Source of the DNA: a virus
Virus record (IMG/VR): IMGVR_UViG_3300045988_144418
Location: 32,001 to 96,000 of that record
Reading direction: 5' to 3' (one strand)
DNA length: 64,000 bases
Part shown: positions 5,688-34,672 of the stretch, piece by piece
Layout: every line of letters starts with the position of its first letter
How positions within the stretch are numbered: position 1 is the stretch's first letter
Position numbers and translations under genes: made by a program
Notes under the pieces: model-generated
What the model was told of the DNA's origin: nothing
The model's database searches: none
Seen by the model: only the letters and a program-made list of their open reading frames with translations

Positions 5688-5689
5688 TT

Positions 5690-8866: not shown

Positions 8867-8878
8867 ATAGATTGCGAT

Positions 8879-9763: not shown

Positions 9764-9775
9764 AGGAAGTGAATT

Positions 9776-10351: not shown

Positions 10352-10367
10352 TCAGTCTGATTAAGTT

Positions 10368-10385
10368 AGAAATGATTTCGTTATG
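10368..10385 (+). promoter_or_regulatory. start-codon-abutting motif (AGAAATGATTTCGTTATG)
   Basis: Recurrent motif ending in the ATG. Confidence 0.35.
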
Positions 10386-10910: not shown

Positions 10911-10911
10911 T

Positions 10912-11307: not shown

Positions 11308-11677
11308 GTTAAAGTTACTGGCTGACTCCTTAGGAATAGGTGCTGTGTCAGCGGAGGTTGAAAAGATTATGCTTCAGGAACAGCAGGTGTCAACGGAAAC
11401 GGTTCTTCGTCTGCTTGGCGAGTTGCTGTCAATGCTGTCCACTATGGGCAGAAGGATGATGCACTTTAGGGACAGGACAGGCCAGATTCTTTCCAAGGGC
11501 TTTATCATTATGTTCCGTAAGAGTGAGACAGTTGAGGGTGAGCCTACTATTGTTATCAATGACTTTGGTGCAGGACTAAAGGCGGAGAACAACCCTGTTA
11601 TAGAACTGGAGCTTGTTTATGACGATGTTGACGTGCGTGATGAGGACTTTGACACGTTATTATTAATGAAAAACTAA
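11288..11677 (+). CDS. hypothetical protein
   Basis: ATG at 11288 inside track ORF 11276..11677; overlaps the HNH stop by 20 nt. Confidence 0.5.
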   Translation: MKEILIKLKLLADSLGIGAVSAEVEKIMLQEQQVSTETVLRLLGELLSMLSTMGRRMMHFRDRTGQILSKGFIIMFRKSETVEGEPTIVINDFGAGLKAENNPVIELELVYDDVDVRDEDFDTLLLMKN

Positions 11678-11693
11678 AAATGATTTTGTTATG
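11676..11693 (+). promoter_or_regulatory. start-codon-abutting motif (AAAAATGATTTTGTTATG)
   Basis: Recurrent motif ending in the ATG. Confidence 0.35.
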
Positions 11694-12350
11694 AATTCCA
11701 CGATTAGGTACATAATTGTTGGTGACAGTGAGACTGGAGGGCTTCCTAATAAGGGCAAACAGGCTTTCTATGACATTGCACTGTGTGAATTTGCCTTTGT
11801 CGTTATAGATATTCAGGAAATGAAAGTGGTGGAGGAATGGAGTACACTCTTTAGACCCTATAAGGACAATCTTGAGTATAACCCCCAGGCACTTGAGGTC
11901 AATGGTCTTACGGTTGAACAGTTGCAGAAAAGCGGTGATGACCTGAAGAACATCTATAAGGAAATGATCATGTTGTTTAAGAAGTATAAGAATCCTCGTA
12001 TAGGAGCGGTACTTGCAGGACATAATTTTCAGCCGTTTGATATGCCTTTTCTCACTAATATGTTTGAGTTTTGCGGTGATAGCATCTGGAATTATGTCAC
12101 GTTCGTGGAGGACACCATGAAGCTGGCTTGGTATCGTGCCAAGGAGCAGGAAAATTACAAGCTCGGAACGTGCTGTCGTATGGAGGGTGTTGATTTGGTT
12201 AACGCTCATCGTGCGCTTGCTGACACAAAGGCGAACGCCCTGTTGCTTTTGAAATACATTTCCTATATGCGTGGCTCTGGAGAGGGTTCGAGCGTTGCGA
12301 TTCCAAGAATGAAGCCGTCTTCCTTTAGAGAGACCTTTCAACTTGTGTAG
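11691..12350 (+). CDS. DnaQ-like DEDDh 3'-5' exonuclease (proofreading subunit candidate)
   Basis: ExoI VGDSETGG, ExoII AGHNFQPFDMPFL, ExoIII NAHRALADTKA. Confidence 0.85.
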   Translation: MNSTIRYIIVGDSETGGLPNKGKQAFYDIALCEFAFVVIDIQEMKVVEEWSTLFRPYKDNLEYNPQALEVNGLTVEQLQKSGDDLKNIYKEMIMLFKKYKNPRIGAVLAGHNFQPFDMPFLTNMFEFCGDSIWNYVTFVEDTMKLAWYRAKEQENYKLGTCCRMEGVDLVNAHRALADTKANALLLLKYISYMRGSGEGSSVAIPRMKPSSFRETFQLV

Positions 12351-12352
12351 TG

Positions 12353-14452
12353 ATGATTGAGTTTAATGAGAATAACAGTCTTTCTTTTCGGCAGCTGGAT
12401 AGTATTATAGACACCACAACGAGAATAGTGCAGAATCTCCCTGTAAAAGCCATAAATCAGCTTATGGAGGGGTATAGGGGGGATCAGGATGCTATGTTGT
12501 CAGAGATGTTTCGTCAGACAGAGAATGTTCTGAAGTTGAACACTACATTGGAAACTGAACGTCTTTCCTATGTCGATCAGCTTATTGAGAGCATGGATGA
12601 GTCCTTGAAGATAATGTCATACAATTACTTCAAGACTACAATGCTTCCTAATTTTAGACAGGGGTGGAGAAATCTTGAGTGGGGTAATATGATTCAGCTG
12701 TACCCGAATAGTGCTTATCTTGCGGCTCGTTCTCATGGGAAGTGCTTTTTGGCTGGAACTCACATCTTGATGGCTGATTGGACAGTGAAGAATGTGGAGG
12801 ACATCTATCCTGGGATGGAGGTGATGGGTATGGACTTTACCCCAAGAAAGGTTTTCACACGGCATATTGGTCGGTCACAGATGTTTACGGTGCACCAGGA
12901 GAATGGCATTTCCTATACCGTGAATAGATTCCACATTCTCTGCCTATGGGATACAAAGAGGAAACACTATGTTGAGGTTCCGATGGGAAATTTTCTGAAA
13001 TATCCTCAAGAAAAACAGAATAGGTTTAGAGGGTACAGAGTGTTTTCGAGCGACAACCCTATACTGGAATATTCTCCTATAGCGGTTGAACCGTATGGTG
13101 ATGGATCCTACTATGGTTTTGCCTGTGACGGTGATCATAAGTTTCTTCTGGAGGACAATACTGTTGTTCATAATTCGTATGAATTTTGTATGGGGCTTCC
13201 TCTGTGGAGGATGTACTCCTATCGTAGACCAAATTTTATGAAGCCTGATATTCCGGACAATAGGAATAGAAAGGAAACTTGCATTATAACCAACACGGAG
13301 ACACTCGGTAAGGAGCATCTGGATAAGATTAAGGAGGAGATTCATACCAATGAAGCACTTTCAGCGGTGCTTAATCCGAACGGCAAGGCTTCGCTTGGAG
13401 CTACTGGCTTTGAGTGTGAGAATGGATCCAAACTGCATCTTAGAGGGAAGGACGGATTCATTCGAGGTCTTCACGTGGGTGCGGCTGTGTCTGATGACCT
13501 CCCTGATGATAGCTCCATCTATAGTCTGGAGCAGAGAGAGAAGTTGAGAGACCTGTTTAAGGGTGCTATCACCCCTATTGTAGAGCCGTATGGATATAAT
13601 ATCGTGGATGGCACACCGTATCAGGCACAGGATCTTTATTATGAGTTGAAGCAGGATCCGAAATTTATGGTGTTTGAGTATCCAGCCATATTTCCTGACG
13701 GCAGACTTTTGGCACCTGATCGTTTTACGTTTGACAAGTTGATGGAGGAAAAGAAGTCCGTGGGTACGCTTGTGTTTAGCCGTGAGTATCTTGTTGTTCC
13801 TATTTCTGACGATTCCACCATTTTTCCTATGGAGATATTAATGCGAAGCACGATAGGAATGGAGAATGTGCGACTTGTAGATAATATTGAATCGTTTCCA
13901 TTCAAGTTGTCCAGAGTGGTTGTAGGGTGTGATTTTGCCGTGTCAGGAAATGTGGGTGCTGACTACACTTGTTATACGGTATGGGGGAAGGATTTGAATG
14001 GTTCCTATTATCTTCTGTACATCTATCGGGAAAAAGGTTTGTCACATAATGAGCAGATAAACAAGATAGAGTACTTGAACACGGTGTTTAAGCCGAATGA
14101 GATTGTGGTGGAGAATAACGGTTTTCAGTCCATTCTTGCTGATATGTGTGTACAGAGAGGAATCAAAAATATATATCCGTTTACCACTACTTCAGGAAAC
14201 AAGAAGGACTTGCGAACAGGGTGGGCGTCGCTTGCAGCTCTATTTGAGAGAGGTGATATACGATGTCCGTATCATCCTGACACACGACAGAGGATAGACA
14301 CTATGTTTGGGGAGTTTACATCTATTGCGTTTCGTTCTGATAAAGGTACACTGGAATCCATTAGCGGTCACGATGACACAGTATCATCCTCGTTTATGGC
14401 AATAAATAGATTACGTGAATCAGCTGTTCAGATAAAGGTTGATGCAGTATAA
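12353..14452 (+). CDS. terL: terminase large subunit, interrupted by an in-frame mini-intein
   Basis: Exteins reconstruct Walker A AARSHGK|S; downstream AAVSDD (Walker B-like), DGTPY, nuclease-domain motifs VVGCDFA, VENNGFQ, GHDDTV. Confidence 0.9.
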   Translation: MIEFNENNSLSFRQLDSIIDTTTRIVQNLPVKAINQLMEGYRGDQDAMLSEMFRQTENVLKLNTTLETERLSYVDQLIESMDESLKIMSYNYFKTTMLPNFRQGWRNLEWGNMIQLYPNSAYLAARSHGKCFLAGTHILMADWTVKNVEDIYPGMEVMGMDFTPRKVFTRHIGRSQMFTVHQENGISYTVNRFHILCLWDTKRKHYVEVPMGNFLKYPQEKQNRFRGYRVFSSDNPILEYSPIAVEPYGDGSYYGFACDGDHKFLLEDNTVVHNSYEFCMGLPLWRMYSYRRPNFMKPDIPDNRNRKETCIITNTETLGKEHLDKIKEEIHTNEALSAVLNPNGKASLGATGFECENGSKLHLRGKDGFIRGLHVGAAVSDDLPDDSSIYSLEQREKLRDLFKGAITPIVEPYGYNIVDGTPYQAQDLYYELKQDPKFMVFEYPAIFPDGRLLAPDRFTFDKLMEEKKSVGTLVFSREYLVVPISDDSTIFPMEILMRSTIGMENVRLVDNIESFPFKLSRVVVGCDFAVSGNVGADYTCYTVWGKDLNGSYYLLYIYREKGLSHNEQINKIEYLNTVFKPNEIVVENNGFQSILADMCVQRGIKNIYPFTTTSGNKKDLRTGWASLAALFERGDIRCPYHPDTRQRIDTMFGEFTSIAFRSDKGTLESISGHDDTVSSSFMAINRLRESAVQIKVDAV
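12743..13174 (+). mobile_element. mini-intein (144 aa, no homing-endonuclease domain) in the terminase P-loop
   Basis: Begins with Cys (CFLAGTHILMADW, block A) directly after GK of Walker A; ends YYGFACDGDHKFLLEDNTVVHN followed by Ser (+1 nucleophile); splicing restores GKS. Confidence 0.85.
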
Positions 14453-14458
14453 TAAAAT

Positions 14459-14475
14459 AGAAATGATTTTGTATG
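14459..14475 (+). promoter_or_regulatory. start-codon-abutting motif (AGAAATGATTTTGTATG)
   Basis: Recurrent motif ending in the ATG. Confidence 0.35.
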
Positions 14476-16011
14476 CAGACAAAGAAATTTGATGCGGTCT
14501 TGAGTCCGACATTTGTTGAAGAAATGCTTCGGCTCGCATATTCCAACAAGACATTCGCAGGGCTTGTGGTTGAGAATGTTAATGTAAGCAATTTTCCTCG
14601 TGAGCTTGGTGCGTGTAAGGCAATGCTCAAGGTACTGGCTGATAACTATCGTAATGGAGTATTTGCCACCTTGGGAATGGTTGAGATGGCCTTTCCGAAG
14701 AGTGATGAAGTAGCCAAGAAGATTTCTGAAATTAAGAATATGCCTGTTCCTCCCTATGATGGGATGGTTAAGCAGTTGGAAACATTCATTCGTCGGCAGA
14801 CATTTGTGGCTGTGCAGCATGAAGTGAGTGATATGTATAATGAGGGTAAGCCTGACGAAGCGATGGACTTGTTGGGGCGCAGGATGTCTGAAATACTGTC
14901 CTTTTCTTTGAAGCAGGGTGCAAAGGGGAAATTTTCCAGAATATATAGGGACTTTGTGCGTAACATAGCGATTGCACAGCAGAAGCAGGATGATGAGGTT
15001 AAGCGTCCAAAGATTCCTCTTGGCATCACGTCTTTGGATGATTTAACTGACGGTGGTGTTCCTCGGCAGGATACTGTTCTTTGGATTATGCGTTCCGGAG
15101 TGGGAAAATCCACGGCCTTGAAATATCATGCTTGGTACAATACGTCAATATCACATAATCACTGTCTTCACATCCAGCTGGAGGGTGGTGAGCAGGAGGC
15201 AGTGGTGAAGTTTGATCAGATGCTTGCACAGACAACCTATGCAAAGGTTTTGCGAGGTGATATTACGTCTGACACTCAGAAGCGTGTGCAGTCACTTATC
15301 AGAAGGGCTGTTACGGTGAATTCTGATATAGACGTGTATGCTTCCGAGGAGATGATGGAAATGACGATAGCTGACATTGTCAAGGTGGTGGAGGATTATT
15401 ATCTGGAGTATGGCTATTATCCTGATCTGATAACAGTTGATTCCATTGATCTTTTGCTTACAGGGCAGAACAGCAAGATAGACTATGATCCTAACTTTAT
15501 TAAGTATAGACTACAGAAGTGTGCACAGCGGTTAAAGGATCTTGCCACGAAGTATGATTGTGTCGTGATGACAGCCACTCAGACCTGTGATGTTCCTATG
15601 GAACTATGGAACGATCCATCTCGTGTCATAACACGTCAGCACACAGAGGGTGATAGAACACTGGTCAAGCCGTTTTCCTTTGTGTTTACAGGTAATGTAA
15701 CCATTGAGGAGGGTGCTCAGAACGTTATGCGTATATTCTGTGATAAGTTTCGAAATTATCGAAATAACGGAATAATTGTGAAGATACCGACCAACTATGA
15801 GAACGGCTTCTTTTACGACCTAAAACGTTCCGTAAAGGAGGAACAGGTACTTGATATGAACGCTATGCTGAAGATGGATGGCGCTCCTACACGCAGAAGA
15901 CGCACAAGTGATGGCAGACAGACGGAGACAAAGACGGTTGAGGTGTCAAGCGGTGTGTTCGTGACTCAGAATGTTGAGAAGAAGAAAGTGCCGCAGAAAA
16001 GGGGTGTCTGA
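14473..16011 (+). CDS. DnaB-like replicative DNA helicase
   Basis: 512 aa; GITSLDDLTDGGVPRQDTVLWIMRSGVGKST (DnaB C-terminal Walker A context), later LITVDSID (Walker B-like). Confidence 0.7.
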   Translation: MQTKKFDAVLSPTFVEEMLRLAYSNKTFAGLVVENVNVSNFPRELGACKAMLKVLADNYRNGVFATLGMVEMAFPKSDEVAKKISEIKNMPVPPYDGMVKQLETFIRRQTFVAVQHEVSDMYNEGKPDEAMDLLGRRMSEILSFSLKQGAKGKFSRIYRDFVRNIAIAQQKQDDEVKRPKIPLGITSLDDLTDGGVPRQDTVLWIMRSGVGKSTALKYHAWYNTSISHNHCLHIQLEGGEQEAVVKFDQMLAQTTYAKVLRGDITSDTQKRVQSLIRRAVTVNSDIDVYASEEMMEMTIADIVKVVEDYYLEYGYYPDLITVDSIDLLLTGQNSKIDYDPNFIKYRLQKCAQRLKDLATKYDCVVMTATQTCDVPMELWNDPSRVITRQHTEGDRTLVKPFSFVFTGNVTIEEGAQNVMRIFCDKFRNYRNNGIIVKIPTNYENGFFYDLKRSVKEEQVLDMNAMLKMDGAPTRRRRTSDGRQTETKTVEVSSGVFVTQNVEKKKVPQKRGV

Positions 16012-17045
16012 TGAAGTACGATAAGGAGAATATTATTGACGAGCTTGGGCTTGTTCCGTTCGGTTCTCAGGGGTGGTTATCGAACAAGGAGATGGTCTGT
16101 CCGTTTTGTGGTAAGTCCGGAAAATGGGGTGTTATATTTAATGATACTGGAGGGGCGACATTTCATTGCTGGAAGTGTCCACGTAAGACTTCTTTGTATG
16201 AATTTCTTAAAAAGATAGGTAGAACGGATCTTGCAAGGGTTACATACACGGCCAAGCCTGATGAGGTGTGCCCAAGGATAGGTGAGGAGCAGACGGAGGA
16301 ATCACAGTGGATGACCTCCATGGAGTTGCAGCCTTTGGAGTTGCAGCCTGTTGCGCTTCCATTGCGACTGAAACCACTTGTGGGGGATGAGTATCTTGAA
16401 AGCAGGGGGTTCAATGACTATCACTATAGACTATTTGAACCATCCTACACAAATACACCACTGGAGCCGAAGTTGAAAAACTATATTGTGTTTAAGATGA
16501 AGATGAACGGTGTGTGTGTGGCTTGGTGGGCGAGAAGTCGTTATTCAAAGGAATGGCATAAGGAGAATCTGGAACTTTATAAGCAGCATAAGGCTGAGCT
16601 TGTGCTTCGGTATAGGAACTCAGAAAGCAATTTTCAGGACTTGCTTGGTGGTTATGATCAACTTGTTGAGGGTGTTACACAGACAGTGATTCTGGTGGAA
16701 GGCATTTTTGATATGATTAATATCACGAACATTCTTGGACTTGCTGATGTGAATGATGTTAAGTGCTGTTTTACATTCGGTAATAGCATAGGAAAGGGAC
16801 AGATAGAGTCATTGTTGAGGAAAAAAGTTAGGAATATAGTACTTTTGTATGATGATGGGACAATAGACGAAAGTCGTGAAGCGGCCTTGCGGATGAGGGA
16901 ACTGTTTGATACTGTGATGGTGGCGGCTATACGACGCAGAGGTGTTGATCCTGGAAACATAGACATAGACTATCTGATGGAGGTGTTGGAGTCAGCGTGT
17001 GATTCTCTAACATTCTCTTACAATAGGCTTGAAATGAAGATTTGA
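16011..17045 (+). CDS. DNA primase (zinc finger + TOPRIM)
   Basis: CPFCGKSGKW...HCWKCP zinc ribbon; TOPRIM-like ILVEGIFDMINI and LLYDDGTIDE; ATGA overlap with the helicase gene. Confidence 0.7.
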   Translation: MKYDKENIIDELGLVPFGSQGWLSNKEMVCPFCGKSGKWGVIFNDTGGATFHCWKCPRKTSLYEFLKKIGRTDLARVTYTAKPDEVCPRIGEEQTEESQWMTSMELQPLELQPVALPLRLKPLVGDEYLESRGFNDYHYRLFEPSYTNTPLEPKLKNYIVFKMKMNGVCVAWWARSRYSKEWHKENLELYKQHKAELVLRYRNSESNFQDLLGGYDQLVEGVTQTVILVEGIFDMINITNILGLADVNDVKCCFTFGNSIGKGQIESLLRKKVRNIVLLYDDGTIDESREAALRMRELFDTVMVAAIRRRGVDPGNIDIDYLMEVLESACDSLTFSYNRLEMKI

Positions 17046-17048
17046 GGT

Positions 17049-17507
17049 ATGAGCAAGGAAATGATTAGGTCTCAGAAGGAATTTATTCACAAGTTGGAAA
17101 TGGAGTATCTTACACACAAGTTGAGATCACTTGTGTATCGTAAGATGAAGTACATAAAGCTCTCCAGAGATATGGCTGTGAAGAAGAAGGAAAAGATTCA
17201 GGCACTCGGCATGAAGTTTGGCATTTCTACAATGTTTGATACAGGTGTAGAGAAGTTCGTGAATGAGCATTTCTGGAATAAGTGTGGGCTTCCAAATTTT
17301 TCCTATAAGGATAGTGAGCAGAAGCGTGTGCAGGGTAATTATGACGCTTGGTATCTTCTCTATCGTGGGGTTGTGATAATGTATAATGGTGAGCCTTATA
17401 CTGTTGTAAGCAACAACCCTTCGACAAGGACAGTTCAGGTGCTTGATGGTTGTTTTGCAATGAGTTATGATGAGATATCTCTTGTGAACGATTATGACTG
17501 GGAATAA
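17049..17507 (+). CDS. hypothetical protein
   Basis: 152-aa ORF 3 nt after the primase stop. Confidence 0.6.
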   Translation: MSKEMIRSQKEFIHKLEMEYLTHKLRSLVYRKMKYIKLSRDMAVKKKEKIQALGMKFGISTMFDTGVEKFVNEHFWNKCGLPNFSYKDSEQKRVQGNYDAWYLLYRGVVIMYNGEPYTVVSNNPSTRTVQVLDGCFAMSYDEISLVNDYDWE

Positions 17508-17534
17508 CGTTTTACTAAAAAGACAAAATAAAAG

Positions 17535-17990
17535 ATGATTAAGGTAAGGATTTTTAATGAAAGTAAGTTTCTGGGGTCGGAGTATTTTCCAGAATATAAG
17601 AGTTTGGGTGCGTCAGGCGTGGATCTTAGGGCTGACATCGGTGAGGATATTGTGCTTCATCCAATGCAGCGAATGTTGATTTCAACAGGTCTGCGAATAG
17701 CTATTCCTCAGAATTATGAGGCACAGGTTCGCTCTCGTTCAGGGCTTACAGTGAAGAACGGTGTTATTGTTCTTTCTCCAGGTACCATAGATAGTGATTA
17801 TAGAGGGGTTATTGGTGTTCCTTTGGCCAATCTGGGTGATGAGGATTTTGTAATTCATAGAGGGGATTGTATTGCACAGCTTGTTTTTCAGAAAGTGGAA
17901 AGAGTTTGGTTTGAGGGTGTCAGCTCTATTGAAGCACTTGGTCTAACTGATCGCGGTGAAGGAGGCTTTGGTCATACAGGCGTGAAATAG
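17535..17990 (+). CDS. dut: dUTP diphosphatase
   Basis: All trimeric dUTPase motifs: ASGVDLRA, RSRSGL, GTIDSDYRGVIGV, RGEGGFGHTG. Confidence 0.95.
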   Translation: MIKVRIFNESKFLGSEYFPEYKSLGASGVDLRADIGEDIVLHPMQRMLISTGLRIAIPQNYEAQVRSRSGLTVKNGVIVLSPGTIDSDYRGVIGVPLANLGDEDFVIHRGDCIAQLVFQKVERVWFEGVSSIEALGLTDRGEGGFGHTGVK

Positions 17991-18007
17991 AAATTTTCAA
18001 GAATATT

Positions 18008-18039
18008 CTTTGGATATCTAAGATAAGTGACTATATTTG
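18008..18039 (+). promoter_or_regulatory. early promoter cassette P1
   Basis: ctTTGGATATCTAAG ... TATATTTG; -33 TTG to -7 box spacing matches the other copies. Confidence 0.6.
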
Positions 18040-18075
18040 CACTGTGAAATTTTAACAATTAAATCAAAAACGTTT

Positions 18076-18669
18076 ATGGAACAGAAAGAATTGTCCGTAA
18101 GGATGAAAATTCGTAAGTTTAAGAATGACGCTGCCAAGCTGTCAGAAATCATTGAGTCAGAGGCTTCCACCGAACTGGAAAAGAAAGTGGCTTCGGAGTA
18201 TCTTGCCAAGTTGCAGGAACTCCCGCAGTCTGAACAGCCAGAAGCACCGCAAGCTCCGGAGGAGACGACACTTTTTCCTGAGGAAGAGGAGAAGTCAGCC
18301 CCTAAGAAGGAAGAGTCTATCAGTTCCGAGCTTACTCCTGAGGAAGTCGCTCGTCTTGATGCAGCGGAGAAGAAGTTCGATGAGCGTCAGGCCAGTCGTA
18401 AGACACCATCAAAGGGTGACAAGAATATGCGTGAGGAGCGTAAGAAGAAAAGTTCAACGGCTAATCTGCATGAGGGCAAACGTGAGAATCTTGAAGAATC
18501 CACGGAGGTTCCTGGTCTGAAGGTTGGTTCTACTGTAAAGGTGGGTAATGAGGAAGGCTCTGTCATTCGTGTCTATCGTAGCACCGACGGCAAGGAGAAG
18601 TGTATGGTCAAGATCGGAGACGGCAAGCCTGTCAAGAAGCGTGTTACTTCCGTGGAACTTGTAAAATAG
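18076..18669 (+). CDS. hypothetical acidic/lysine-rich protein with C-terminal SH3/KOW-like segment
   Basis: ATG 18076 lies 37 nt after the -7 box of promoter cassette P1; the track ORF start (18037) falls inside the promoter. Confidence 0.55.
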   Translation: MEQKELSVRMKIRKFKNDAAKLSEIIESEASTELEKKVASEYLAKLQELPQSEQPEAPQAPEETTLFPEEEEKSAPKKEESISSELTPEEVARLDAAEKKFDERQASRKTPSKGDKNMREERKKKSSTANLHEGKRENLEESTEVPGLKVGSTVKVGNEEGSVIRVYRSTDGKEKCMVKIGDGKPVKKRVTSVELVK

Positions 18670-18678
18670 TCGGGATTT

Positions 18679-19413
18679 ATGGTTACGGATTCAGGAACCA
18701 TAATTCTTATCAAGGGGGTCAGTGGAAGCGGTAAATCCACAAGGGTTTATTGCTTCCTTGATTTCCTGGAAAGCATTGGAATGAAACTGAAGCCATATCA
18801 GTTTGTGAATATACTTGGACAGACACAGGAGATAGGCTTGTATTCAGAGGAGTTGAATATGCTTTTTCTGGGAAAGTTCTATGACGACAATGGTGTTCGT
18901 AGGTGGCAGGGGTTGGATGCTGTTACAGGGCGATTGCACACGGCTGAGGGTCTTTCCTATTTCCTGAAGTGGGCTGGTCAGCGGAAGTTGAATGTTGTGC
19001 TGGAGGGGGCTGGAACGTCCGTGACGTGGCGATTGCGTCCGATGGAGATATGTGCCGAGTATGAGTATCTAAATATTCTCTATTTGGTCTATACGTTCAA
19101 ACTGGAGCAGTATGATGACTATATCAGGAGAATAGAGTATCGCTCGGGCAAGGCTCCGAAAAGCGACGCTATGTGGCGGAAGCGCAAGGGGTTTGAATCA
19201 GACTATACTCAGACTGTTGCGGAAGCGAAGGACTTGAATGCAGCAGGAGCGGACATTGTCATCAAGTACAATCTTTTCGATGTTGAAGCATGGGATCTCG
19301 GTGTAAGCATTATGCAGTATTTCGGTCTTGACGAGTTGTGCGATGAGTTCAAGCTGTTTGTGGAGGGTGGTGGTTATATTGGGCAGAATTCCTATGAAAA
19401 CATTGGTAGATGA
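18679..19413 (+). CDS. P-loop kinase; candidate 5-hydroxymethyl-dU DNA kinase
   Basis: Walker A GVSGSGKST near the N-terminus; ATGA-coupled to the aGPT-Pplase-like gene. The kinase family is clear; the substrate is inferred from context. Confidence 0.4.
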   Translation: MVTDSGTIILIKGVSGSGKSTRVYCFLDFLESIGMKLKPYQFVNILGQTQEIGLYSEELNMLFLGKFYDDNGVRRWQGLDAVTGRLHTAEGLSYFLKWAGQRKLNVVLEGAGTSVTWRLRPMEICAEYEYLNILYLVYTFKLEQYDDYIRRIEYRSGKAPKSDAMWRKRKGFESDYTQTVAEAKDLNAAGADIVIKYNLFDVEAWDLGVSIMQYFGLDELCDEFKLFVEGGGYIGQNSYENIGR

Positions 19414-20423
19414 GTAAAATAGTTCCAAATGACAATTTGACGTACCTCTTCTATTGGTGCTGTGAACGAATGAACATATTCTGGAAGCGGTATAATGGAG
19501 AGCAGTATCCATGGACTGATGATGAGATATTACAGCAGTATAAGTTCACAAATGTGTATCGGGTGCTGGATAGGTCAAGTCAGTATATGCTTCGTAACGT
19601 TATCTATAATGGTAAGCAGTATTCTCCGGAGGATATGTTTTTTCGTATTTTACTTTATAAGCATTTTAATCTTCCTGACACGTGGGGTGCCCTGATTAAG
19701 GAGTTTGGTGATATTACATACGACACCGGATGGGAGAACATTGCACGTTTTCTGGATGATAGAGGTAGACAGGACATCACCATCTATTCTAATGCCTTTA
19801 TGTTGACAGGGTGGTTTTATTCTCTTCCGGAGTATGCTAATATTCGTGGGACTTCAAAACATCGTGGATATTTTGAGGTGTTTAAGCGTCGAATTTTTGA
19901 TAATGGTAAGATTGATGCTTTTCTCAGTGCTGCAAGTTTTGAAGAGCTTTTTGGTATGTTTAAGGAGCTTGAACCATTTAGCGACTTCATGTCACAGCAG
20001 TATTGTCTTGACATGAATTATTCCCCTTTATACAACTTTACTGAGAATGACTTTGTGGTTGTCGGCCCTGGAAGTAAAAGGGGGATTCAATTTGCATTTA
20101 AGGGGGATCATAGAGATGACGGTGAAGTTGTTATCAGGTGGATGCAGGAGCACTTTGAGGAACTGATGACAAAGTTCTGTCAGGATTCAGGTATGATTTG
20201 GAATCCATTGCCGTGGGAGCCAGTGCCTACACTGACGAACATTCAAAATTGTTTTTGTGAGCTATCAAAGTATGCTAAATGTATGGGTGTGCAGTTTAAG
20301 AAGAATACTAAAGGTAGGATGAAAAATCTTTATACTACACCAAAATCAGAAATTTCTTATATGTTTCCACGGAAATGGAATGTTAAGATGCCGTTAAAAG
20401 GGCAGATAGAAACTTATAAATAA
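19410..20423 (+). CDS. alpha-glutamyl/putrescinyl-thymine pyrophosphorylase (aGPT-Pplase)-like DNA base hypermodification protein
   Basis: N-terminal ERMNIFWKRYNGEQYPWTDDEILQQYKFTNVYRVLDRSSQY matches my memory of the conserved aGPT-Pplase N-terminal signature (W.D..L..Y+F.NVYR..D+.T/S); not verified by search. Confidence 0.5.
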   Translation: MSKIVPNDNLTYLFYWCCERMNIFWKRYNGEQYPWTDDEILQQYKFTNVYRVLDRSSQYMLRNVIYNGKQYSPEDMFFRILLYKHFNLPDTWGALIKEFGDITYDTGWENIARFLDDRGRQDITIYSNAFMLTGWFYSLPEYANIRGTSKHRGYFEVFKRRIFDNGKIDAFLSAASFEELFGMFKELEPFSDFMSQQYCLDMNYSPLYNFTENDFVVVGPGSKRGIQFAFKGDHRDDGEVVIRWMQEHFEELMTKFCQDSGMIWNPLPWEPVPTLTNIQNCFCELSKYAKCMGVQFKKNTKGRMKNLYTTPKSEISYMFPRKWNVKMPLKGQIETYK

Positions 20424-20432
20424 AAAACGATT

Positions 20433-21560
20433 ATGGATTTTGTATTTGATAATCTTAGTCAGGCTTTTGTTGGGCTTTTAAGGGATCTTAAGGCTTTTGG
20501 TACTTGGACACAGAGGGGAACCAATTCAGCAGGAAATATGTGCTTGGAATTTCCAGAGCCAGTGCTTATAAAGATATATAATCCACTGAATAGATATGTT
20601 TTTGTTCCGGAGCGCAAGTGGAACAAGACGTTGGGGTGGATTGAATCACTCTGGATTGCCAGAGGTGACAACTCGCTTGAAATGCCGTCAGCCTATGTCA
20701 AGAACCTGTTGACGTTCTCCGATGACGGTGAGACAATGCGTGCAGGATACGGCCCGAGGATTCGTGCCTTTGGTGGTCATCTGTGGAAGAAAGGTGTTCG
20801 ATTTGAAGAGGGTTCACCGCTATACTGGATGAAGCAGCAGTATGATTCCAGATATGGGAATGGTACGGTTGCCGTTGTGGATCAGTTGAAATTTGTGATT
20901 GACAAATTTAAGCAGGATCCAACCACGAGGGAGGCTGTCATTACGATTCATGACCCTATGGCTGATGACTTCAGTGGCAAGGAGATTCTTAGAACGAAGG
21001 ACACCCCTTGCACACGCTCCATTCACTTTATGATCGTAGATGGCAAGATGAACTGTTACGTGGATATGAGATCTAATGATCTGTTCTGGGGCTTCAGTGC
21101 TGTCAATGTCTTCAATTTCACTTTGATGCAGGAGTATGTCGCCGCGATGGTGGGTGTGCCTGTGGGGGTATATTATCACAAAGTTGATAATTTGCACATG
21201 TACGAAGGATCTTTGCCTATGGCTAGGAATATTACTTCTATTTATGGAACAATGGCAGCAGTTGAAAAATGGTCTGACTTATATAGTTTTGATGAGGAAT
21301 TAGATTGGCACGGTTATAAACATACATTTACCACATTGGAGGTCTTTGACAATCTAATAGCGTTGCTATCTGAGTTTGAGCGTGGGATGCGTGGTGTCGA
21401 TGATTTGCCGTACAGCAAGGATGAAGCTCTGGAAACAATGAACATGATGTTTGGGGGTGAGCCGATGTTTATGGACTGGGCAAAGGTTATCTATCGTAAG
21501 TGGTCAAAGGACACGACCGTGACATTTGACAATCCGTATCTGACAAAGTTATTTGTCTGA
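20433..21560 (+). CDS. thymidylate synthase (ThyA) homologue; candidate dUMP hydroxymethylase
   Basis: ThyA-fold motifs VDQLKFVIDKFKQDPTTREAVITIHDP, catalytic-Cys context DTPCTRSIHF, MRSNDLFWGFSAVNVFNF; about 110-aa C-terminal extension relative to typical ThyA. Confidence 0.7.
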   Translation: MDFVFDNLSQAFVGLLRDLKAFGTWTQRGTNSAGNMCLEFPEPVLIKIYNPLNRYVFVPERKWNKTLGWIESLWIARGDNSLEMPSAYVKNLLTFSDDGETMRAGYGPRIRAFGGHLWKKGVRFEEGSPLYWMKQQYDSRYGNGTVAVVDQLKFVIDKFKQDPTTREAVITIHDPMADDFSGKEILRTKDTPCTRSIHFMIVDGKMNCYVDMRSNDLFWGFSAVNVFNFTLMQEYVAAMVGVPVGVYYHKVDNLHMYEGSLPMARNITSIYGTMAAVEKWSDLYSFDEELDWHGYKHTFTTLEVFDNLIALLSEFERGMRGVDDLPYSKDEALETMNMMFGGEPMFMDWAKVIYRKWSKDTTVTFDNPYLTKLFV

Positions 21561-21665
21561 AGTTACTTTGTAGAAACCATAAGAACAGCCGTGCAACCTC
21601 TGGTCGGGAAGCCTGTGATAGGTAAGGAGGAAGTTCGAGACTTCTCACGGCTGCAAGAACTAAAT

Positions 21666-21683
21666 AAAAATGATTTCGTTATG
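21666..21683 (+). promoter_or_regulatory. start-codon-abutting motif (AAAAATGATTTCGTTATG)
   Basis: Recurrent motif ending in the ATG. Confidence 0.35.
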
Positions 21684-22220
21684 AACTACAAAAAGATTGA
21701 CTATCTACTTCAGATGAAGCAGATACAGAGACTTCCAAATGTCCCCCATCATAGAAGTTATAATATTCTTGAGCACAGCTTTGTAGTCGGTATGCTTTTC
21801 AGGTGGTTTGCTTCCGCCTGTGATGTCTCCTACGATATAAATGTGTGGGATAAGGTGCTTATGCACGACTATCTTGAAGCATTTACAGGGGATTTGAACT
21901 TTGTTGTTAAGAATTTGACAGAGAAGACATCAAGTGCGTGGGCGACGATAGAGAAGGAGGTCTGTGATCATGACACTGTTTTGAATCATTATTCTGATGA
22001 AGCCATAAAGTCCGCCATGACGGAGGAGCAGCGCATTCTCTTTAAGGTGTGTGACTATCTTGATTTGTGGATTTTCTGCAAGCAGGAGGAGGCACTTGGT
22101 AATACCACGATTGGAAACAAGACCGTTATAGATAACTGTAAGAAGCTCATCTATGGTCTCTGTGGGCAGGATAGAAAGTGGTTTCCTATCTTTGATTTTA
22201 TGTGCAAATATACAGCGTAG
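21681..22220 (+). CDS. HD-domain phosphohydrolase (YfbR-like 5'-deoxynucleotidase candidate)
   Basis: H...HD...E..GD pattern: NILEHSFVVG ... LMHDYLEAFTGD; ATG 21681 abutted by AAAAATGATTTCGTTATG motif. Confidence 0.65.
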   Translation: MNYKKIDYLLQMKQIQRLPNVPHHRSYNILEHSFVVGMLFRWFASACDVSYDINVWDKVLMHDYLEAFTGDLNFVVKNLTEKTSSAWATIEKEVCDHDTVLNHYSDEAIKSAMTEEQRILFKVCDYLDLWIFCKQEEALGNTTIGNKTVIDNCKKLIYGLCGQDRKWFPIFDFMCKYTA

Positions 22221-22222
22221 CT

Positions 22223-22885
22223 ATGGATGAAAGAACCCCAGTTGAGATATATGCCTTTGTCGGGGTGATTGGCTCCGGCAAGAGCTATCGGCTTGAGCAG
22301 ATGAAGAGAGAATACAATGGTGTCGGTCAGGTTGTCATTACCGCTGACTTTTCAGATGGTATTCGAGATCTAACACGTCAGCTTTTGGGGTATGGTGCTA
22401 ACTTCGGTGATGTGAATTCACAGGAATATCGTGACTGGAAGGAGAACGTGGCCTGTGTGACAGTTCACAATGGAGCGGTGGTGAATTCTTTCACTGGACG
22501 TGATGTGTTGCGTAATGTGGGAGAGTCCACGAAGTGTATTGCAGGTCAGAACGTGTGGGCGAGATATACGACACAGTCCTTATATTCACGCATAGCGTAT
22601 CAGGCATTTCGCTCTGATTTATGTGTGAGTGGTGTTCGGGTGCTTATAGGGTCAGTGCGATTCAAGTGCGAGGCTCGGAGCATATTTGAGCTCTTTAGCG
22701 ATGTAGCAGCCAATATGGATAGCTTTATGAATCCGTCCTTGCACTTTATATTCTGCGACTATCACTCGTCGAGCTATGATGCGGCAAGTGGTCACGTCAG
22801 TGAGGCACTTGCACAGATCGTGTTGAATACAGGCAAGTACAAGGATGGTGATGATATCACCGAACTGATAGACACAATGGTATGA
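22223..22885 (+). CDS. P-loop NTPase; deoxynucleoside-monophosphate kinase candidate
   Basis: Walker A GVIGSGKSY 15 aa from the ATG at 22223; lies between the HD hydrolase and the polymerase. Confidence 0.4.
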   Translation: MDERTPVEIYAFVGVIGSGKSYRLEQMKREYNGVGQVVITADFSDGIRDLTRQLLGYGANFGDVNSQEYRDWKENVACVTVHNGAVVNSFTGRDVLRNVGESTKCIAGQNVWARYTTQSLYSRIAYQAFRSDLCVSGVRVLIGSVRFKCEARSIFELFSDVAANMDSFMNPSLHFIFCDYHSSSYDAASGHVSEALAQIVLNTGKYKDGDDITELIDTMV

Positions 22886-25800
22886 GACAGGAATTTGAAC
22901 AGTATCTACAGAGGAACCTGATGTCATATACGGAGGTCAGTCCTTATGTGTATGAAATAGATGGTAGGACATTCGAACTCTATAAGCCTGACAATGATGG
23001 CGCATTGTTTGACGATGACTTCAGGTTTACAGGCATTCCGGCCAATTTAGCGAGATACACCTCCACTGAGAAAACGGTGGACACACAGTGTGACTTTTAT
23101 GCCTATAAGTTTGGAGGAGTGTGGTATATGCTTCCAAGGGATGATAGAGACAAGGTTAAGTTGAAGCGCCTGAAATATCTTGGGGAAGCGGTGCAGGAGA
23201 TTCCAACACCTGTCTTTATGGGTGTTCATGGTCAGTATGAGATTATGTCGGGCTCCGGAACGTATGCTGATTGGTGTGCAAAGGCGAAGTTCTACGGTGT
23301 TACGACACTTGGTATCTGTGAGAAGAACACTTTGTCGGGTGTCTTGAAATTTCAGGTGGAATGTCAGAAGAACGGCCTGAAGCCTGTTATCGGGATGGAA
23401 TGCACTGTATATGATATTGTCAAGGACTTTAGGTTCACGGCCAAGGTGTTTGTCAGAAATGAGGTGGGTTGGCAGAGCATCCTCACTATGTCGGAAGCCA
23501 TTAACTGTGATAATCCTGGGTATATTCTCATTGACCAGTTTAGAGAGGAAATAAGCCGAAATGCGGAAGGATTGGTGGTGGTTGCAGACCCCAAGACGAC
23601 TGACTATGACAAGTTCGCTGAAATCGGTCTAAAAATAGATTACTATCAACTTGACCCTGTTAGATATGCGGAAGAATCTCGTGATGAAGTGTATTTGAAG
23701 AACCTGAGAAAATTTTATCATAGTGGTATGCTTGCTCTTCCTATGGCTGATGCTTGGTATCTGGACGAGGAGTATAGCTGTATCAGATCGAGACTTGCAA
23801 GCATAGGTGGATCTAACTTTTATGACAGTGATGATCAGTGGTTTAAGCCGAATGATGTATTGTTCTGTCAGCTTGCTGACATGTTTCCAAGCACGGATGA
23901 TGGTCTGGGGCTTGCGTACCAGGACTTTTTAGATGGGCTTGAAAGGTTGATGGATCTTGCTGATAGCATTGGCTTTATCGTGGACACAACCAAACGCCAT
24001 CTTCTACGCTACATTATGACAGAGGATGAAGCCGCTAAGTATGTCACCAATGAGGATATGTTCTGGGGGCTTATTGACGAGGGACTTCAGCGGCATCCTG
24101 AGCTGATTGAACAGTACGGTGAGGATGTGGTGATGGAACGCATTGATAGAGAAGTTGGTGTAATTAAGTTGGGGGATACAATCGATTACTTCCTAATTAC
24201 GAGGGATATTGTGAATTGGTGTCATCATAATGATATTATGACAGGTATATCCAGAGGTTCGGCAGGAGGGTGTCTTATCTCGTATCTTCTTGGGATCACA
24301 AAGTTGGATCCAATAGGCTATAATCTACTTTTTGAGAGGTTTTTGAACGAGGGTCGTGTAAAGAAAAGTCTTCCTGATATAGATACGGATTTCCCTGGAG
24401 AAGACCGAGGAAAAGTCAAGCAGTATATGGAACAACGATTTGGGGAGGTTAATGTCTGTTCTGTGGGTACTTATTCCGCCTTGCAGCTGAGAGCGGCTAT
24501 CAAGGACATGTCTCGTGTGTATGGGCTGGAGTTTCAAGAGGTGAATGATATGATGAAACTCTTTGCCGTGGATGATCGTAAGCCTGAAGACCTGTTTAGG
24601 ATAGCGTGTGCACAGCCACGTGTGAAGAAGTTTGTTAGAGAGCATTCTGACTTGGTGAATGAGGTGATGCTGATTATGCCAGCCCCCAAGGCACGTTCCG
24701 TTCACGCCTGTGCCACTATGATATTTCCGAAGGAGCACGATATGTTTCACTGGACACCTATTCGCAAACAGAACGGAGAGTATGTGACTGAGTGGGAGGG
24801 TGGTGAAATGGACGGTGCAGGATTTCTGAAGAATGATATCTTGGGTATTAAGCAGCTTGATAAATTTCAGAATATGGTGCGTCTTGTCAAGGAGAACGAG
24901 GGTGTTGATGTGGATATTTTCAATGTGCCGCTTGACGATTCAGAGGTGTATCGTTACTTTCAGAACGGCTGGACGGAGGATAATTTTCACTTCGGCTCTC
25001 GTGGTTTGACAGGCTACTGTAAGGAGATGAAGCCTGAAAACATAGAGGACTTGATTGTGGCCATCGCCCTGTATCGTCCTGGAGCAATGGAGAACGGCTT
25101 CCATACGGAGTATGTTAAGCGTAAGGAGGGTGCGCCTGTAAGTTACTTTGTAGGTTCCGAGGAAATTCTTTCCAATACTTATGGGATTTTCTGTTTTCAG
25201 GAACAGATCATGGAGTTGTGTAAGCATCTTGGGGGGCTTTCACTTGTGGAAGCTGATGACGTGCGAAAGGCGATGGTGAAGAAGAAGTACGAAGCACTTC
25301 ATCAGTATCATCCAAGATTTGTTGACAACTATGTGACACAGTTCGGTGTCACGAATGAATATGCTGAAAGTGTGTGGGATGCTATTGACAAGGCTTCCAC
25401 TTACCTGTTTAACCGTTCTCATGCTGTCGCCTATGCTCTTACTGGCTATATCTCGCAGTGGATGAAAGTACACTACCCAATAGAATACTGGAGTGTTGCG
25501 TTCAAGGAAGCGATGACGGAGGATTACCCTCGCTATATTGCTGAGATTAACAAGACAGGTGTCTGCACGGTGAGGTCTGTGGATATCAATCTGTCGGGAA
25601 CAGGCGTGTATATTGACTTTGCGGCCAGAACGCTCTATTGGTCTGTCACAGGCGTTAAGCAGGTGGCTGAAAAGGCGGCTACACAGATACTCAAGGAACG
25701 TGATGAGAATGGTAGGTATTGGTCTTTGGATGACTTTGTGACACGACATAAGTGGAAAGGGTCAGCGGTGAACACGAGGGTTGTGCAGAATCTTATTCTC

Positions 25801-26364
25801 GCAGGGGCATTTGATGACGTGGAGAACATCACTGATGCCTCTCAGAGGGTGGAACTATTGATATCCTATCTTGCTTCCACAAAAAACAAGTTGAATGAGA
25901 CTGATCCTATTATAGCAGGGTTTGACATTCACAGGAATGATGCTTGGTGGTGGCAGCTTATGCAGAAGAAACTTTCAGGGCTTGCATTCTTTGACTATGC
26001 AGGTCTTTATGACAAGGTGAAGCAGTTTTTCCCTGTTGACTATGAGTATTATACCTTTGAGGAATGTAGTGACGTGGAATATCGTCCTAACAGGGGATAT
26101 GTCATTGTTGGTGGGTATGTGTCAGCGATAGACCTGAAAAAAACCAAGAAAGGAGACATTCTATGCCGTATAACACTGGAGAACAACTATGAGTTTCTGG
26201 ACTTGGTTGTATTCCAGACGGAATATGAGCGGCTTCAGGAGGAGATTGCTGCAAGCAAGGATAATATCGTGCTTTTGAATGCAACACTTTACTATGACGC
26301 ACGGAATGATAAAAACGCCTTGCGTGCTGATATGGAGACATCCATTGTGACATTTAAGTTATAA
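22882..26364 (+). CDS. dnaE: DNA polymerase III alpha subunit (DnaE family, C-family polymerase)
   Basis: 1160 aa; N-terminal PHP region (FMGVHGQYEIMSGSG), palm/fingers signature GISRGSAGGCLISYLLGITKLDPI...LFERFLNEGRVKKSLPDIDTDF, ALYRPG, FNRSHAVAYA. Confidence 0.9.
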   Translation: MRQEFEQYLQRNLMSYTEVSPYVYEIDGRTFELYKPDNDGALFDDDFRFTGIPANLARYTSTEKTVDTQCDFYAYKFGGVWYMLPRDDRDKVKLKRLKYLGEAVQEIPTPVFMGVHGQYEIMSGSGTYADWCAKAKFYGVTTLGICEKNTLSGVLKFQVECQKNGLKPVIGMECTVYDIVKDFRFTAKVFVRNEVGWQSILTMSEAINCDNPGYILIDQFREEISRNAEGLVVVADPKTTDYDKFAEIGLKIDYYQLDPVRYAEESRDEVYLKNLRKFYHSGMLALPMADAWYLDEEYSCIRSRLASIGGSNFYDSDDQWFKPNDVLFCQLADMFPSTDDGLGLAYQDFLDGLERLMDLADSIGFIVDTTKRHLLRYIMTEDEAAKYVTNEDMFWGLIDEGLQRHPELIEQYGEDVVMERIDREVGVIKLGDTIDYFLITRDIVNWCHHNDIMTGISRGSAGGCLISYLLGITKLDPIGYNLLFERFLNEGRVKKSLPDIDTDFPGEDRGKVKQYMEQRFGEVNVCSVGTYSALQLRAAIKDMSRVYGLEFQEVNDMMKLFAVDDRKPEDLFRIACAQPRVKKFVREHSDLVNEVMLIMPAPKARSVHACATMIFPKEHDMFHWTPIRKQNGEYVTEWEGGEMDGAGFLKNDILGIKQLDKFQNMVRLVKENEGVDVDIFNVPLDDSEVYRYFQNGWTEDNFHFGSRGLTGYCKEMKPENIEDLIVAIALYRPGAMENGFHTEYVKRKEGAPVSYFVGSEEILSNTYGIFCFQEQIMELCKHLGGLSLVEADDVRKAMVKKKYEALHQYHPRFVDNYVTQFGVTNEYAESVWDAIDKASTYLFNRSHAVAYALTGYISQWMKVHYPIEYWSVAFKEAMTEDYPRYIAEINKTGVCTVRSVDINLSGTGVYIDFAARTLYWSVTGVKQVAEKAATQILKERDENGRYWSLDDFVTRHKWKGSAVNTRVVQNLILAGAFDDVENITDASQRVELLISYLASTKNKLNETDPIIAGFDIHRNDAWWWQLMQKKLSGLAFFDYAGLYDKVKQFFPVDYEYYTFEECSDVEYRPNRGYVIVGGYVSAIDLKKTKKGDILCRITLENNYEFLDLVVFQTEYERLQEEIAASKDNIVLLNATLYYDARNDKNALRADMETSIVTFKL

Positions 26365-34564: not shown

Positions 34565-34672
34565 ATGGGTCTTTTTGAATTTATAGCTAAATCACGTTCT
34601 GGAGTTTATAAGAATACTTCAGAAAATCGTAGACTCCATCGTGTGGGGCAAAGATATGGTGAGCAGAGGCAA
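34565..34672 (+). repeat. shared N-terminal leader, copy 1 (MGLFEFIAKSRSGVYKNTSENRRLHRVGQRYGEQRQ)
   Basis: About 26 of 36 residues identical to copy 2, with many synonymous nucleotide differences. Confidence 0.8.

Follow-up and report, generated by a model that had tools for sequence, protein, structure and literature searches.

Gene content and order of the module

We investigated a 64,000-nucleotide stretch of viral DNA (the window; positions 32,001 to 96,000 of the IMG/VR record IMGVR_UViG_3300045988_144418), and within it a run of genes between 17535 and 22885 that an earlier reading of the sequence alone (the original prediction) had proposed as a candidate thymidine-hypermodification pathway. 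All coordinates are those of the window unless stated otherwise. The enclosing record is scaffold_130 of ENA ERZ28572370, 101,564 bp in length and derived from a gut-type metagenome, in which each position equals the window position plus 27,683. Protein families were assigned using Pfam gathering scores and NCBIfam equivalog cut-offs, together with PHROG profiles and Foldseek searches of AlphaFold2 (AF2) models.

The whole window is encoded on the plus strand, and its GC skew is strongly positive. All six of the nearly contiguous genes in the original prediction are present as open reading frames (ORFs) on this strand (Table 1), and every peptide that it quoted was found in the ORF translations. 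We additionally identified a seventh ORF between the dUTPase and the first kinase, here called orfB, which had not been described and which is conserved in related phages. Its start is placed at ATG 18076 following the public gene call, the longest reading frame beginning at TTG 18037. The second P-loop kinase directly precedes the gene for the replicative polymerase DnaE, as had been noted, and the DnaE gene is likewise conserved directly downstream of the module in related loci.

Table 1. Genes of the module and the adjoining polymerase gene, with the evidence for each assignment.
Feature	Position	Strand	Basis
dUTPase, trimeric-type	17535-17990	+	PF00692, NCBIfam equivalog, phrog_135
orfB, acidic/Lys-rich	18076-18669	+	positional conservation in relatives
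Kinase with P-loop, of the 5-hmdU DNA kinase 2 family	18679-19413	+	PF18747
PF18723 protein, 337 aa	19410-20423	+	PF18723 profile
ThyA-like protein, 375 aa	20433-21560	+	PF00303, MilA similarity
HD phosphohydrolase, YfbR-like	21591-22220	+	PF12917
Second P-loop kinase	22202-22885	+	GVIGSGKS motif, weak phrog_139
DnaE-type replicative polymerase	22882-26364	+	precomputed PHP, DNA_pol3_alpha, finger, HHH_6 domains

A megablast search with the region as query returned no near-identical phage among 50,697 phage records. Profile scanning of IMG/VR recovered 76 loci, and approximately 45 contigs, at 52-96% identity, keep the whole order TerL-DnaB-primase-orf-dUTPase-orfB-kinase-PF18723-ThyA-like-HD-kinase-DnaE, indicating that the arrangement of these genes is not due to chance.

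The first gene encodes a canonical dUTPase, in agreement with its original identification, with matches to PF00692 (6.2e-27) and phrog_135 (2e-46), and a score of 160.7 bits against a cut-off of 103 for the NCBIfam dUTP diphosphatase equivalog. This enzyme would supply deoxyuridine monophosphate (dUMP) and keep dUTP from entering DNA.

The ThyA-like protein matches PF00303 weakly (3.7e-17, 62.8 bits), contains an internal insertion and a C-terminal extension, and carries the motifs TPC(193)T and AVN(225)VF, consistent with its earlier description as a divergent ThyA homologue with an intact catalytic-cysteine region and a long C-terminal extension. It groups with gp188 of phage SP10 (34% identity) and gp58 of phage M6 (29%). 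Alignment with these two proteins, Escherichia coli ThyA and others showed that the equivalents of Glu58, Tyr94, Cys146, Arg166, Ser167, Asp169, Asn177, His207 and Tyr209 are retained, and that Leu/Phe stand in place of the folate-stacking Trp80 and Trp83 (E. coli numbering), within an [FY]SDDG motif common to MilA, SP10 gp188 and M6 gp58. MilA, the CMP hydroxymethylase of mildiomycin biosynthesis (PDB 5b6d, 5jnh), is the best solved relative, at 9e-24 versus 1e-10 for any thymidylate synthase (TS), and both proteins contain an [FY]S.DG...YGPR segment and an R-[SA]-N-D core. The Asn of the SAVNVFN segment had been suggested to occupy the base-discriminating position, and Asn225 indeed aligns with E. 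coli N177 and with an Asp in MilA, whose substrate is a ribonucleotide. The presence of Asn at a position where MilA has Asp points to a uracil substrate. We predict from these comparisons that the protein is a pyrimidine hydroxymethylase, which would convert dUMP to the monophosphate of 5-hydroxymethyl-2'-deoxyuridine (5-hmdU), 5-hmdUMP.

We considered that these genes might instead form an ordinary nucleotide-supply cluster, with a plain TS, dTMP or deoxynucleoside monophosphate (dNMP) kinases and an HD deoxynucleoside triphosphatase serving unmodified DNA. All of the proteins do come from superfamilies of normal deoxynucleoside triphosphate metabolism, every alignable TS catalytic residue is present, and public records label relatives as 'thymidylate synthase' or 'guanylate kinase'. 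However, the ThyA-like protein falls below all seven NCBIfam TS equivalogs, by a wide margin (36.6-66 bits against cut-offs of 108-427), and is nearer to MilA; two neighbouring proteins match PF18747 and PF18723 above threshold; the synteny and phage distribution agree with those of known hypermodifying phages; and a dTMP-producing enzyme placed beside a 5'-deoxynucleotidase would be futile. A plain thymidylate synthase cluster was rejected on the failure at the TS equivalogs, the specific families and the synteny, and we regard unmodified DNA served by such a cluster as very improbable.

The HD phosphohydrolase is YfbR-like by its match to PF12917 (2.4e-16, 60.4 bits against a cut-off of 25.9), with YfbR as the nearest solved structure (PDB 2paq, 4.5e-6). 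It is 24% identical to M6 gp59 (8e-13), and both genes are located after the gene for the ThyA-like protein; the public gene call begins at 21615. As a putative 5'-deoxynucleotidase, the protein would drain dTMP, so that thymidine is excluded. Almost every related locus has the second kinase gene after the HD gene (its public gene call begins at 22223). Its sole family match is to the dNMP kinases of phrog_139, and is weak (3.8e-6); we found no sequence match in Pfam, NCBIfam or PDB. Foldseek searches with its AF2 model (predicted local distance difference test score, pLDDT, 89.9) returned generic P-loop kinases only, at template modelling (TM) scores of 0.3-0.4.

The product of orfB ends in a small beta-rich domain and has no match in Pfam, PHROG or NCBIfam. 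Its homologues occupy the same position in approximately 40 related loci, always just upstream of the kinase or the PF18723 gene, and directly before the PF18723 gene in kinase-less loci such as L040. orfB may be an unrecognised component of the modification module.

The first kinase, the PF18723 protein and the slot between them

The first kinase contains the P-loop GVSGSGKST, and its TGA stop codon is overlapped by the start ATG of the PF18723 gene, confirming the ATGA coupling reported originally. Its suspected membership of the 5-hmdU DNA kinases was also established above cut-off, in the kinase-2 family PF18747 (HMUD2, '5-hmdU DNA kinase 2'; 5.1e-22, 78.9 bits against 25), with a further match to phrog_4409 (1.6e-22). 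By tblastn, the nearest phage relatives of the kinase are 300 aa long and are encoded by ViI-like Kuttervirus and Klebsiella phages (27-30% identity). In Salmonella phage Se-J the kinase homologue lies four genes before a PF18724-like gene, the same spacing as between gp243 and gp247 of ViI. Similarity to M6 gp54, an enzyme of the kinase-1 type, is found at the level of the P-loop only. The public gene call for this kinase begins at 18859, 180 nt late, and loses the P-loop, so that the stored product lacks a Pfam domain and automated pipelines would miss the kinase. Two related enzymes, ViI gp243 of the kinase-2 family and SP10 gp186, including the kinase domain of the latter alone, produce 5-phosphomethyl-2'-deoxyuridine (5-PmdU) in DNA, in vitro in the case of gp243 (PMC8989533). 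Given its family, it is probable that the first kinase phosphorylates 5-hmdU in DNA to 5-PmdU.

The protein encoded at 19410 matches PF18723 at 3.8e-74 (250 bits against a cut-off of 25), with residues 11-292 aligned to positions 5-275 of the 281-position profile. This family, named in 2013, appears as 'HMUDK_hel' in the current Pfam, as 'aGPT-Pplase clade 1' in phage records and UniProt, and as 'putative DNA base hypermodification protein' at NCBI. The resemblance of its N-terminus to the aGPT-Pplase family, as first proposed, is thus real. The associated suggestion that this protein substitutes an adduct onto the base was not supported, as the protein belongs to clade 1 and substitution has been shown only for clade 2 (PF18724; PMC8989533). 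Our search of the literature revealed no functional assignment for PF18723 or clade 1.

The AF2 model of the PF18723 protein is all-helical, with a pLDDT of 93.6. It has no sequence match in PDB, and the best Foldseek hits in PDB were weak ones to helix-hairpin-helix (HhH) glycosylases (E>=0.5). Among predicted viral structures, Foldseek recovered SP10 gp186 (1e-10, TM 0.73) and PhiW-14 gp72 (C9DG43; 4e-7, TM 0.64), among others, followed weakly by clade-2 transferases (E 0.04-0.26, TM 0.43-0.50) and then by endonuclease III. We aligned 150 sequences, consisting of cluster representatives at no more than 50% identity together with M6 gp55 and SP10 gp186, and found that C283, E284 and K287 (NCFC(283)E(284)LSK(287)Y) are kept in 148-150 of them, with Arg51, Asp54, Gln197 and Asp201 also nearly invariant. 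The conserved Cys-Glu-x-x-Lys site is likely to be the active site of this family. In the sole hhalign alignment to clade 2, C283 is paired with the Cys that the clade-2 transferases require, which is suggestive of a relationship between the two clades.

PF18723 is a large family, with 5,031 representatives at 50% identity in a whole-library profile search, and is found fused to thymidylate-kinase-like kinases, MazG and MazG_C, NADAR, MT-A70, GT1 and radical S-adenosylmethionine (radical-SAM) domains. This range of fusions is unusually wide (P0137, P0139, P0164, P0167, P0168, P0181, P0224, P0253, P0118, P0123); one of the proteins, P0123 (829 aa), has an N-terminal extension of around 500 aa and resembles the GT1 fusion of locus L047. 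The mixture of partners is compatible both with a chemical step common to them and with a targeting module.

The second of these possibilities would make PF18723 a non-catalytic partner that binds DNA or flips the base and offers 5-hmdU to the modifying enzyme encoded beside it or fused to it, here the kinase, leaving 5-hmdU and 5-PmdU as the final bases. It accords with the Pfam name, the 'helical domain' of 5-hmdU DNA kinase, with the fusion of PF18723 to the kinase in SP10 and its ATGA coupling in the window, and with the attachment of the domain to many unrelated catalytic partners (P-loop kinases, GT1, radical SAM, MT-A70, NADAR), as is typical of a targeting module. In published experiments, PF18723 was dispensable for in vitro catalysis, and phosphorylation alone sufficed to block NcoI (PMC8989533). 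However, the near-invariance of Cys-Glu-x-x-Lys, Arg51, Asp54, Gln197 and Asp201 in sequences less than 50% identical argues for chemistry and not for binding alone, the SP10 kinase domain is active without its PF18723 part, and PF18723 is also found without any kinase. We consider a mere partner role, with 5-PmdU as a final base, to be possible but doubtful.

We next consider the enzymes that install and elaborate the adduct in characterised phages. The clade-2 enzyme (PF18724, amino acid:DNA transferase) alone swaps the phosphate for an amino acid, by means of a Cys and a Glu that are essential (PMC8989533). Counting close relatives, approximately 99 of the 101.5 kb of the record were covered in the searches for such genes. 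No PF18724, pyridoxal phosphate (PLP), radical-SAM or flavin adenine dinucleotide (FAD) enzyme was identified in Pfam scans of around 49 window proteins, or in the precomputed Pfam matches for record positions 19453-100900. Clade 2 was likewise absent from six-frame ORFs of the window and the record loci, searched by phmmer with four sequences and with a hidden Markov model (HMM) built from twelve, and, using the same HMM, from 20 kb of upstream sequence in close relatives, covered by two walking steps. The same queries do recover clade-2 genes in more distant relatives, so that the absence is meaningful.

The original prediction had likewise seen no PLP or radical-SAM tailoring enzyme nearby and had held that the final adduct cannot be predicted; both statements stand. 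Without PF18724, PLP, radical-SAM or FAD enzymes, the end product should differ from all known bases derived from amino acids or polyamines. We do not predict a hypermodification of known type in this phage, as had been proposed, since the clade-2 transferase is absent; the genes present lead us to predict 5-hmdU synthesis, phosphorylation in DNA and one further step.

Comparison of 51 related phage loci with enough flanking sequence revealed how variable this part of the module is. The ThyA-like gene lies no more than 1.5 kb downstream of PF18723 in 42 of the 51. In 29 a kinase lies no more than 1 kb upstream of PF18723, none of these containing a clade-2 gene, while an insert of around 3 kb separates the kinase and PF18723 in four loci, all four of which encode PF18724. 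One such insert (L075) contains PLP, radical-SAM and PF18724 genes, as in M6; in L049-L051 it consists of GATase, PF18724, amidoligase and GNAT genes. In L055, a GNAT-like part is apparently fused to PF18724, and a separate amidoligase ORF was not seen. In some close relatives, judged by eye, the insert consists only of a GIY-YIG-like homing endonuclease (L020, 9369-9974). Some kinase-less loci carry a HAD/kinase-like gene, a cytidylyltransferase and GT1, the GT1 being fused to PF18723 in L047 and L060, and the kinase-less L046 carries a TET-associated-type glycosyltransferase (TAGT).

The insertion of PF18724 with PLP and radical-SAM genes, or with GATase, amidoligase and GNAT genes, identifies the slot between the kinase and PF18723 as a modification locus. 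As relatives fill this slot, between the kinase or dUTPase gene and PF18723, with varied tailoring cassettes (L040, L046, L047, L049, L055, L075), the lineage of the window is a stripped-down form of a modular locus, and several distinct thymidine modifications are implied within one phage group.

Inserts of 0.1-1 kb also split the dUTPase gene (L007, L008, L010, L022) and the DnaE gene (L007, L026, L038, L040-L043) of relatives; mobile introns, inteins or homing endonucleases seem to be common in this module.

Relatives in characterised phages and in bacterial cassettes

The characterised hypermodified phages contain different bases: 5-(2-aminoethyl)-2'-deoxyuridine (5-NedU) in M6, 5-(2-aminoethoxy)methyl-2'-deoxyuridine (5-NeOmdU) in ViI, alpha-glutamyl-thymidine in SP10 and alpha-putrescinyl-thymidine in PhiW-14 (PMC5889632, PMC8989533). 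In M6 the genes concerned are gp51 (clade 2), gp52 (PLP), gp53 (radical SAM), gp54 (kinase), gp55 (clade 1), gp58 (ThyA-like), gp59 (HD) and gp62 (polymerase); in SP10 they are gp185 (radical SAM), gp186 (a fusion of kinase and clade 1), gp188 (ThyA-like) and gp191 (polymerase). From the kinase onward, the order in the window is that of M6 gp54-gp62 and SP10 gp186-gp191, whereas a counterpart of M6 gp51-gp53 is absent. The kinase belongs to the same family as ViI gp243 ('kinase 2'). The window differs from all four phages in lacking PF18724, PLP, radical-SAM and FAD enzymes, in having kinase 2 as its sole DNA kinase, in its DnaE polymerase and probable Bacteroidota host, and in the low identity of its proteins to characterised ones (21-34%). 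Matches to the kinase, PF18723 and ThyA-like proteins occur in the same groups of phages: ViI-like Salmonella phages (160-164 records), Vibrio phages (62-67), Klebsiella phages (44-45) and Dickeya phages (19-21).

Bacillus phages of the SPO1/SP8 type use a dUMP hydroxymethylase, together with enzymes that remove dUTP and dTMP, to exclude thymidine, and their DNA shows complete 5-hmdU substitution. The window has the same pre-replicative logic. It differs in encoding both PF18723 and a DNA kinase, which leads us to expect further processing of its 5-hmdU. In Bacillus phage records we identified homologues of the ThyA-like protein in 61, of PF18723 in six (the listed ones, SP-10, SBSphiC and Goe26, are SP10-like) and of the DNA kinase in none; these counts fit a link between PF18723 and further processing of 5-hmdU.

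A similar pairing is found in 39-kb Microbacterium phages such as BouleyBill, Kauala and Koji, in which a small P-loop kinase gene overlaps the PF18723 gene (BouleyBill genes 53-52; L084, 1357-2830). ThyA, thymidylate kinase and MazG are close by, and the annotation of the stretch covered contains no clade-2 gene. Their kinase does not match the PF18747-type kinase of the window, and their ThyA is of ordinary size (270 aa). These phages are tractable cultured isolates in which the product of a kinase and clade 1 could be determined.

The cultured Maribacter phage Molly_1 (Bacteroidota, Flavobacteriia; L087, 5288-10047) carries a ThyA-like gene whose product is 37% identical to the window protein. 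It is located directly after genes for a UDP-glucose dehydrogenase, an epimerase and a beta-glucosyltransferase, a context that suggests a glycosylated hydroxymethyl-pyrimidine.

The closest non-viral homologues of the PF18723 protein are encoded on bacterial chromosomes, mostly of Bacteroidota, at 33-44% identity. In 39 of 80 bacterial loci, PF18723 is accompanied by an adjoining ThyA-like gene, a TIR gene of the ThsB type and Nmad2; in a further 11, a viperin-like radical-SAM gene takes the place of the ThyA-like gene. These cassettes (L176-L255; for example L178, 4837-7967; L170, 5939-8910; L168, 4984-7581) are in some cases part of islands of capsule or defence genes. Their ThyA-like proteins align with that of the window along almost the whole length, C-terminal extension included, at 37-41% identity, and retain Cys146 and Asn177. 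The PF18723 and ThyA-like pair of the window is closer to the bacterial cassettes than to M6 or SP10.

One such system has been studied experimentally: DS-4 ('NTTI'), an E. coli system identified with DefensePredictor and shown to be protective, which consists of TS-like, adenylate-kinase-like, PF18723, TIR and Nmad2 components (PMC13092281). The window shares with DS-4 and the TIR-Nmad2 cassettes a core of ThyA-like protein (31% identity to that of DS-4), PF18723 and a small P-loop kinase, together with the conserved catalytic Cys and Asn and the Cys-Glu-Lys site of PF18723. The kinases of these systems are not detectably related to those of the window beyond the P-loop. At E<=1, no six-frame ORF of the window or the same-contig stretches L001, L002 and L005 matched TIR or Nmad2, and the Pfam scans showed neither; no PADLOC model matched a window protein. 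We rejected the possibility that the phage carries a defence system of the DS-4 type, given that neither TIR nor Nmad2 turned up in these stretches and that the genes lie in a replication module with dUTPase, HD and DnaE genes and not in a defence island. The module of the window is a phage-side counterpart of the DS-4-type cassettes, and not a defence system.

The bacterial loci bear on a further alternative, in which PF18723 acts on free nucleotides and not on DNA, and would join the ThyA-like enzyme and a small kinase in producing a modified deoxynucleotide ahead of replication, either for use by DnaE or for a disturbance of the pool such as presumably occurs in DS-4-type systems. Several observations are in line with such a substrate: the tightest genomic link of PF18723 is with the ThyA-like gene and not with the DNA kinase (42/51 phage and 39/80 bacterial loci); the window pair resembles the bacterial pair (33-44% and 37-41% identity) more than that of M6 or SP10; the viperin-like radical-SAM enzyme can stand in for the ThyA-like gene in bacteria; PF18723 is fused to MazG and thymidylate-kinase-like domains; and DS-4 is protective in experiment (PMC13092281). 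Against it, the fold of PF18723 is HhH DNA-glycosylase-like, polymer DNA is the substrate of its kinase partners ViI gp243 and SP10 gp186, and other partners in fusions or gene context (MT-A70, GT1 or TAGT, M6-type radical SAM) act on DNA. Overall, we judge a nucleotide-level function unlikely.

Proposed pathway and wider features of the phage

The best-supported explanation of these genes is a thymidine-replacement and modification module. Judged from the sequence comparisons, its best supported part is synthesis of 5-hmdUTP with exclusion of thymidine, followed by incorporation by DnaE. The ThyA-like enzyme would use the dUMP released by the dUTPase, the second kinase, acting with a host nucleoside diphosphate kinase, would raise the resulting 5-hmdUMP to 5-hmdUTP, and DnaE would place 5-hmdU in phage DNA instead of thymidine. 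Kinase 2 would phosphorylate part of the 5-hmdU in the polymer to 5-PmdU, as members of its family do, and the translationally coupled PF18723 protein would then act on the (phospho)hydroxymethyl-uracil. Its Cys283/Glu284/Lys287 site could make a Michael-type attack at C6, like the clade-2 transferases.

For this last step we tentatively favour, with a probability of roughly 0.4, a Cys-dependent reaction of PF18723 on (phospho)hydroxymethyl-uracil in DNA. A bolder reading, which we consider less likely, is that this reaction would either regenerate thymine by post-replicative conversion of hydroxymethyl-uracil (hmU) or form an undescribed small adduct. An unexplained conversion of hmU to thymine after replication has been reported for SP10 and PhiW-14. 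The candidate end products are a mixture of 5-hmdU and 5-PmdU, thymine regenerated in the polymer, and an undescribed small adduct.

A number of observations weigh against this explanation or parts of it. The link between clade 1 and clade 2 is statistically weak (hhalign probability 3.5%; Foldseek E 0.04-0.26), and clade 1 is dispensable in vitro both for phosphorylation and for amino-acid transfer, as seen with M6 gp55 and with a C-terminal deletion of SP10 gp186 (PMC8989533). PF18723 occurs without a kinase-2 match in 18 of the 51 phage loci, in some of them with glycosyltransferases instead, and its fusion to or pairing with enzymes of free nucleotides (MazG, thymidylate-kinase-like proteins, viperin-like radical SAM) fits a nucleotide-level substrate. 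In the precursor steps, the HD protein scores 36.5 bits against the cut-off of 122 for the NCBIfam 5'-deoxynucleotidase equivalog, and neither the homologue search, the AF2 model nor Foldseek showed the second kinase to be a dNMP kinase. Finally, around 2.6 kb of the record (positions 1-1946 and 100901-101564) lies outside the searches for a transferase, and record positions 1-19452 were read via close relatives only.

The components and the general pathway are already known, and the configuration of kinase 2 and clade 1 without a transferase is undescribed in the literature that we searched. If the interpretation is correct, it extends the thymidine hypermodification pathway to human-gut phages of approximately 100 kb, probably of Bacteroidota and represented by around 45 related IMG/VR contigs. 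Thymidine hypermodification shields phage DNA from restriction and other nucleases. A lineage that has kinase 2 and clade 1 but not the one enzyme that is known to attach the adduct constitutes a natural experiment, and such a minimal system could resolve the origin of polymer thymine from 5-hmdU, the occurrence of 5-PmdU as an end product, and the action of DS-4-type cassettes. It also offers a clean handle on PF18723 itself, a large family with an almost invariant Cys-Glu-Lys site that is present in a validated bacterial defence system. In gut viromics, modified thymidine could bias enzymatic library preparation and long-read base-calling.

The module belongs to a human-gut phage of approximately 101.5 kb, probably with a host among the Bacteroidota. 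We found nothing relevant in the literature on this phage family (Flandersviridae; Bacteroides phages and hmU). A BACON-domain protein is encoded at 48138-49052, a domain linked to Bacteroidota, and this pointer to the host agrees with the bacterial relatives of PF18723, most of which come from Bacteroidota.

We additionally identified other features in the window. The large terminase (12350-14452) contains a Hint (intein-type) domain at residues 132-200, and its ORF is around 400 aa longer in the relatives L007 and L009. Three adjoining ORFs at 34565-37477 may form a toxin or alarmone-type module, and encode a papain-fold glutamine-deamidase-like protein (34565-35698), a RelA/SpoT-like nucleotidyltransferase that scores under the Pfam cut-off (35985-36713) and an HD_4 hydrolase (37001-37477). 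A GroEL-type chaperonin is located at 43815-45431, a DUF4494 protein at 45680-46144 and a ferritin-like protein at 50197-50655. The window also encodes a D12-class N6-adenine DNA methyltransferase (58427-59338; 1.6e-41), and the phage may methylate adenine too.

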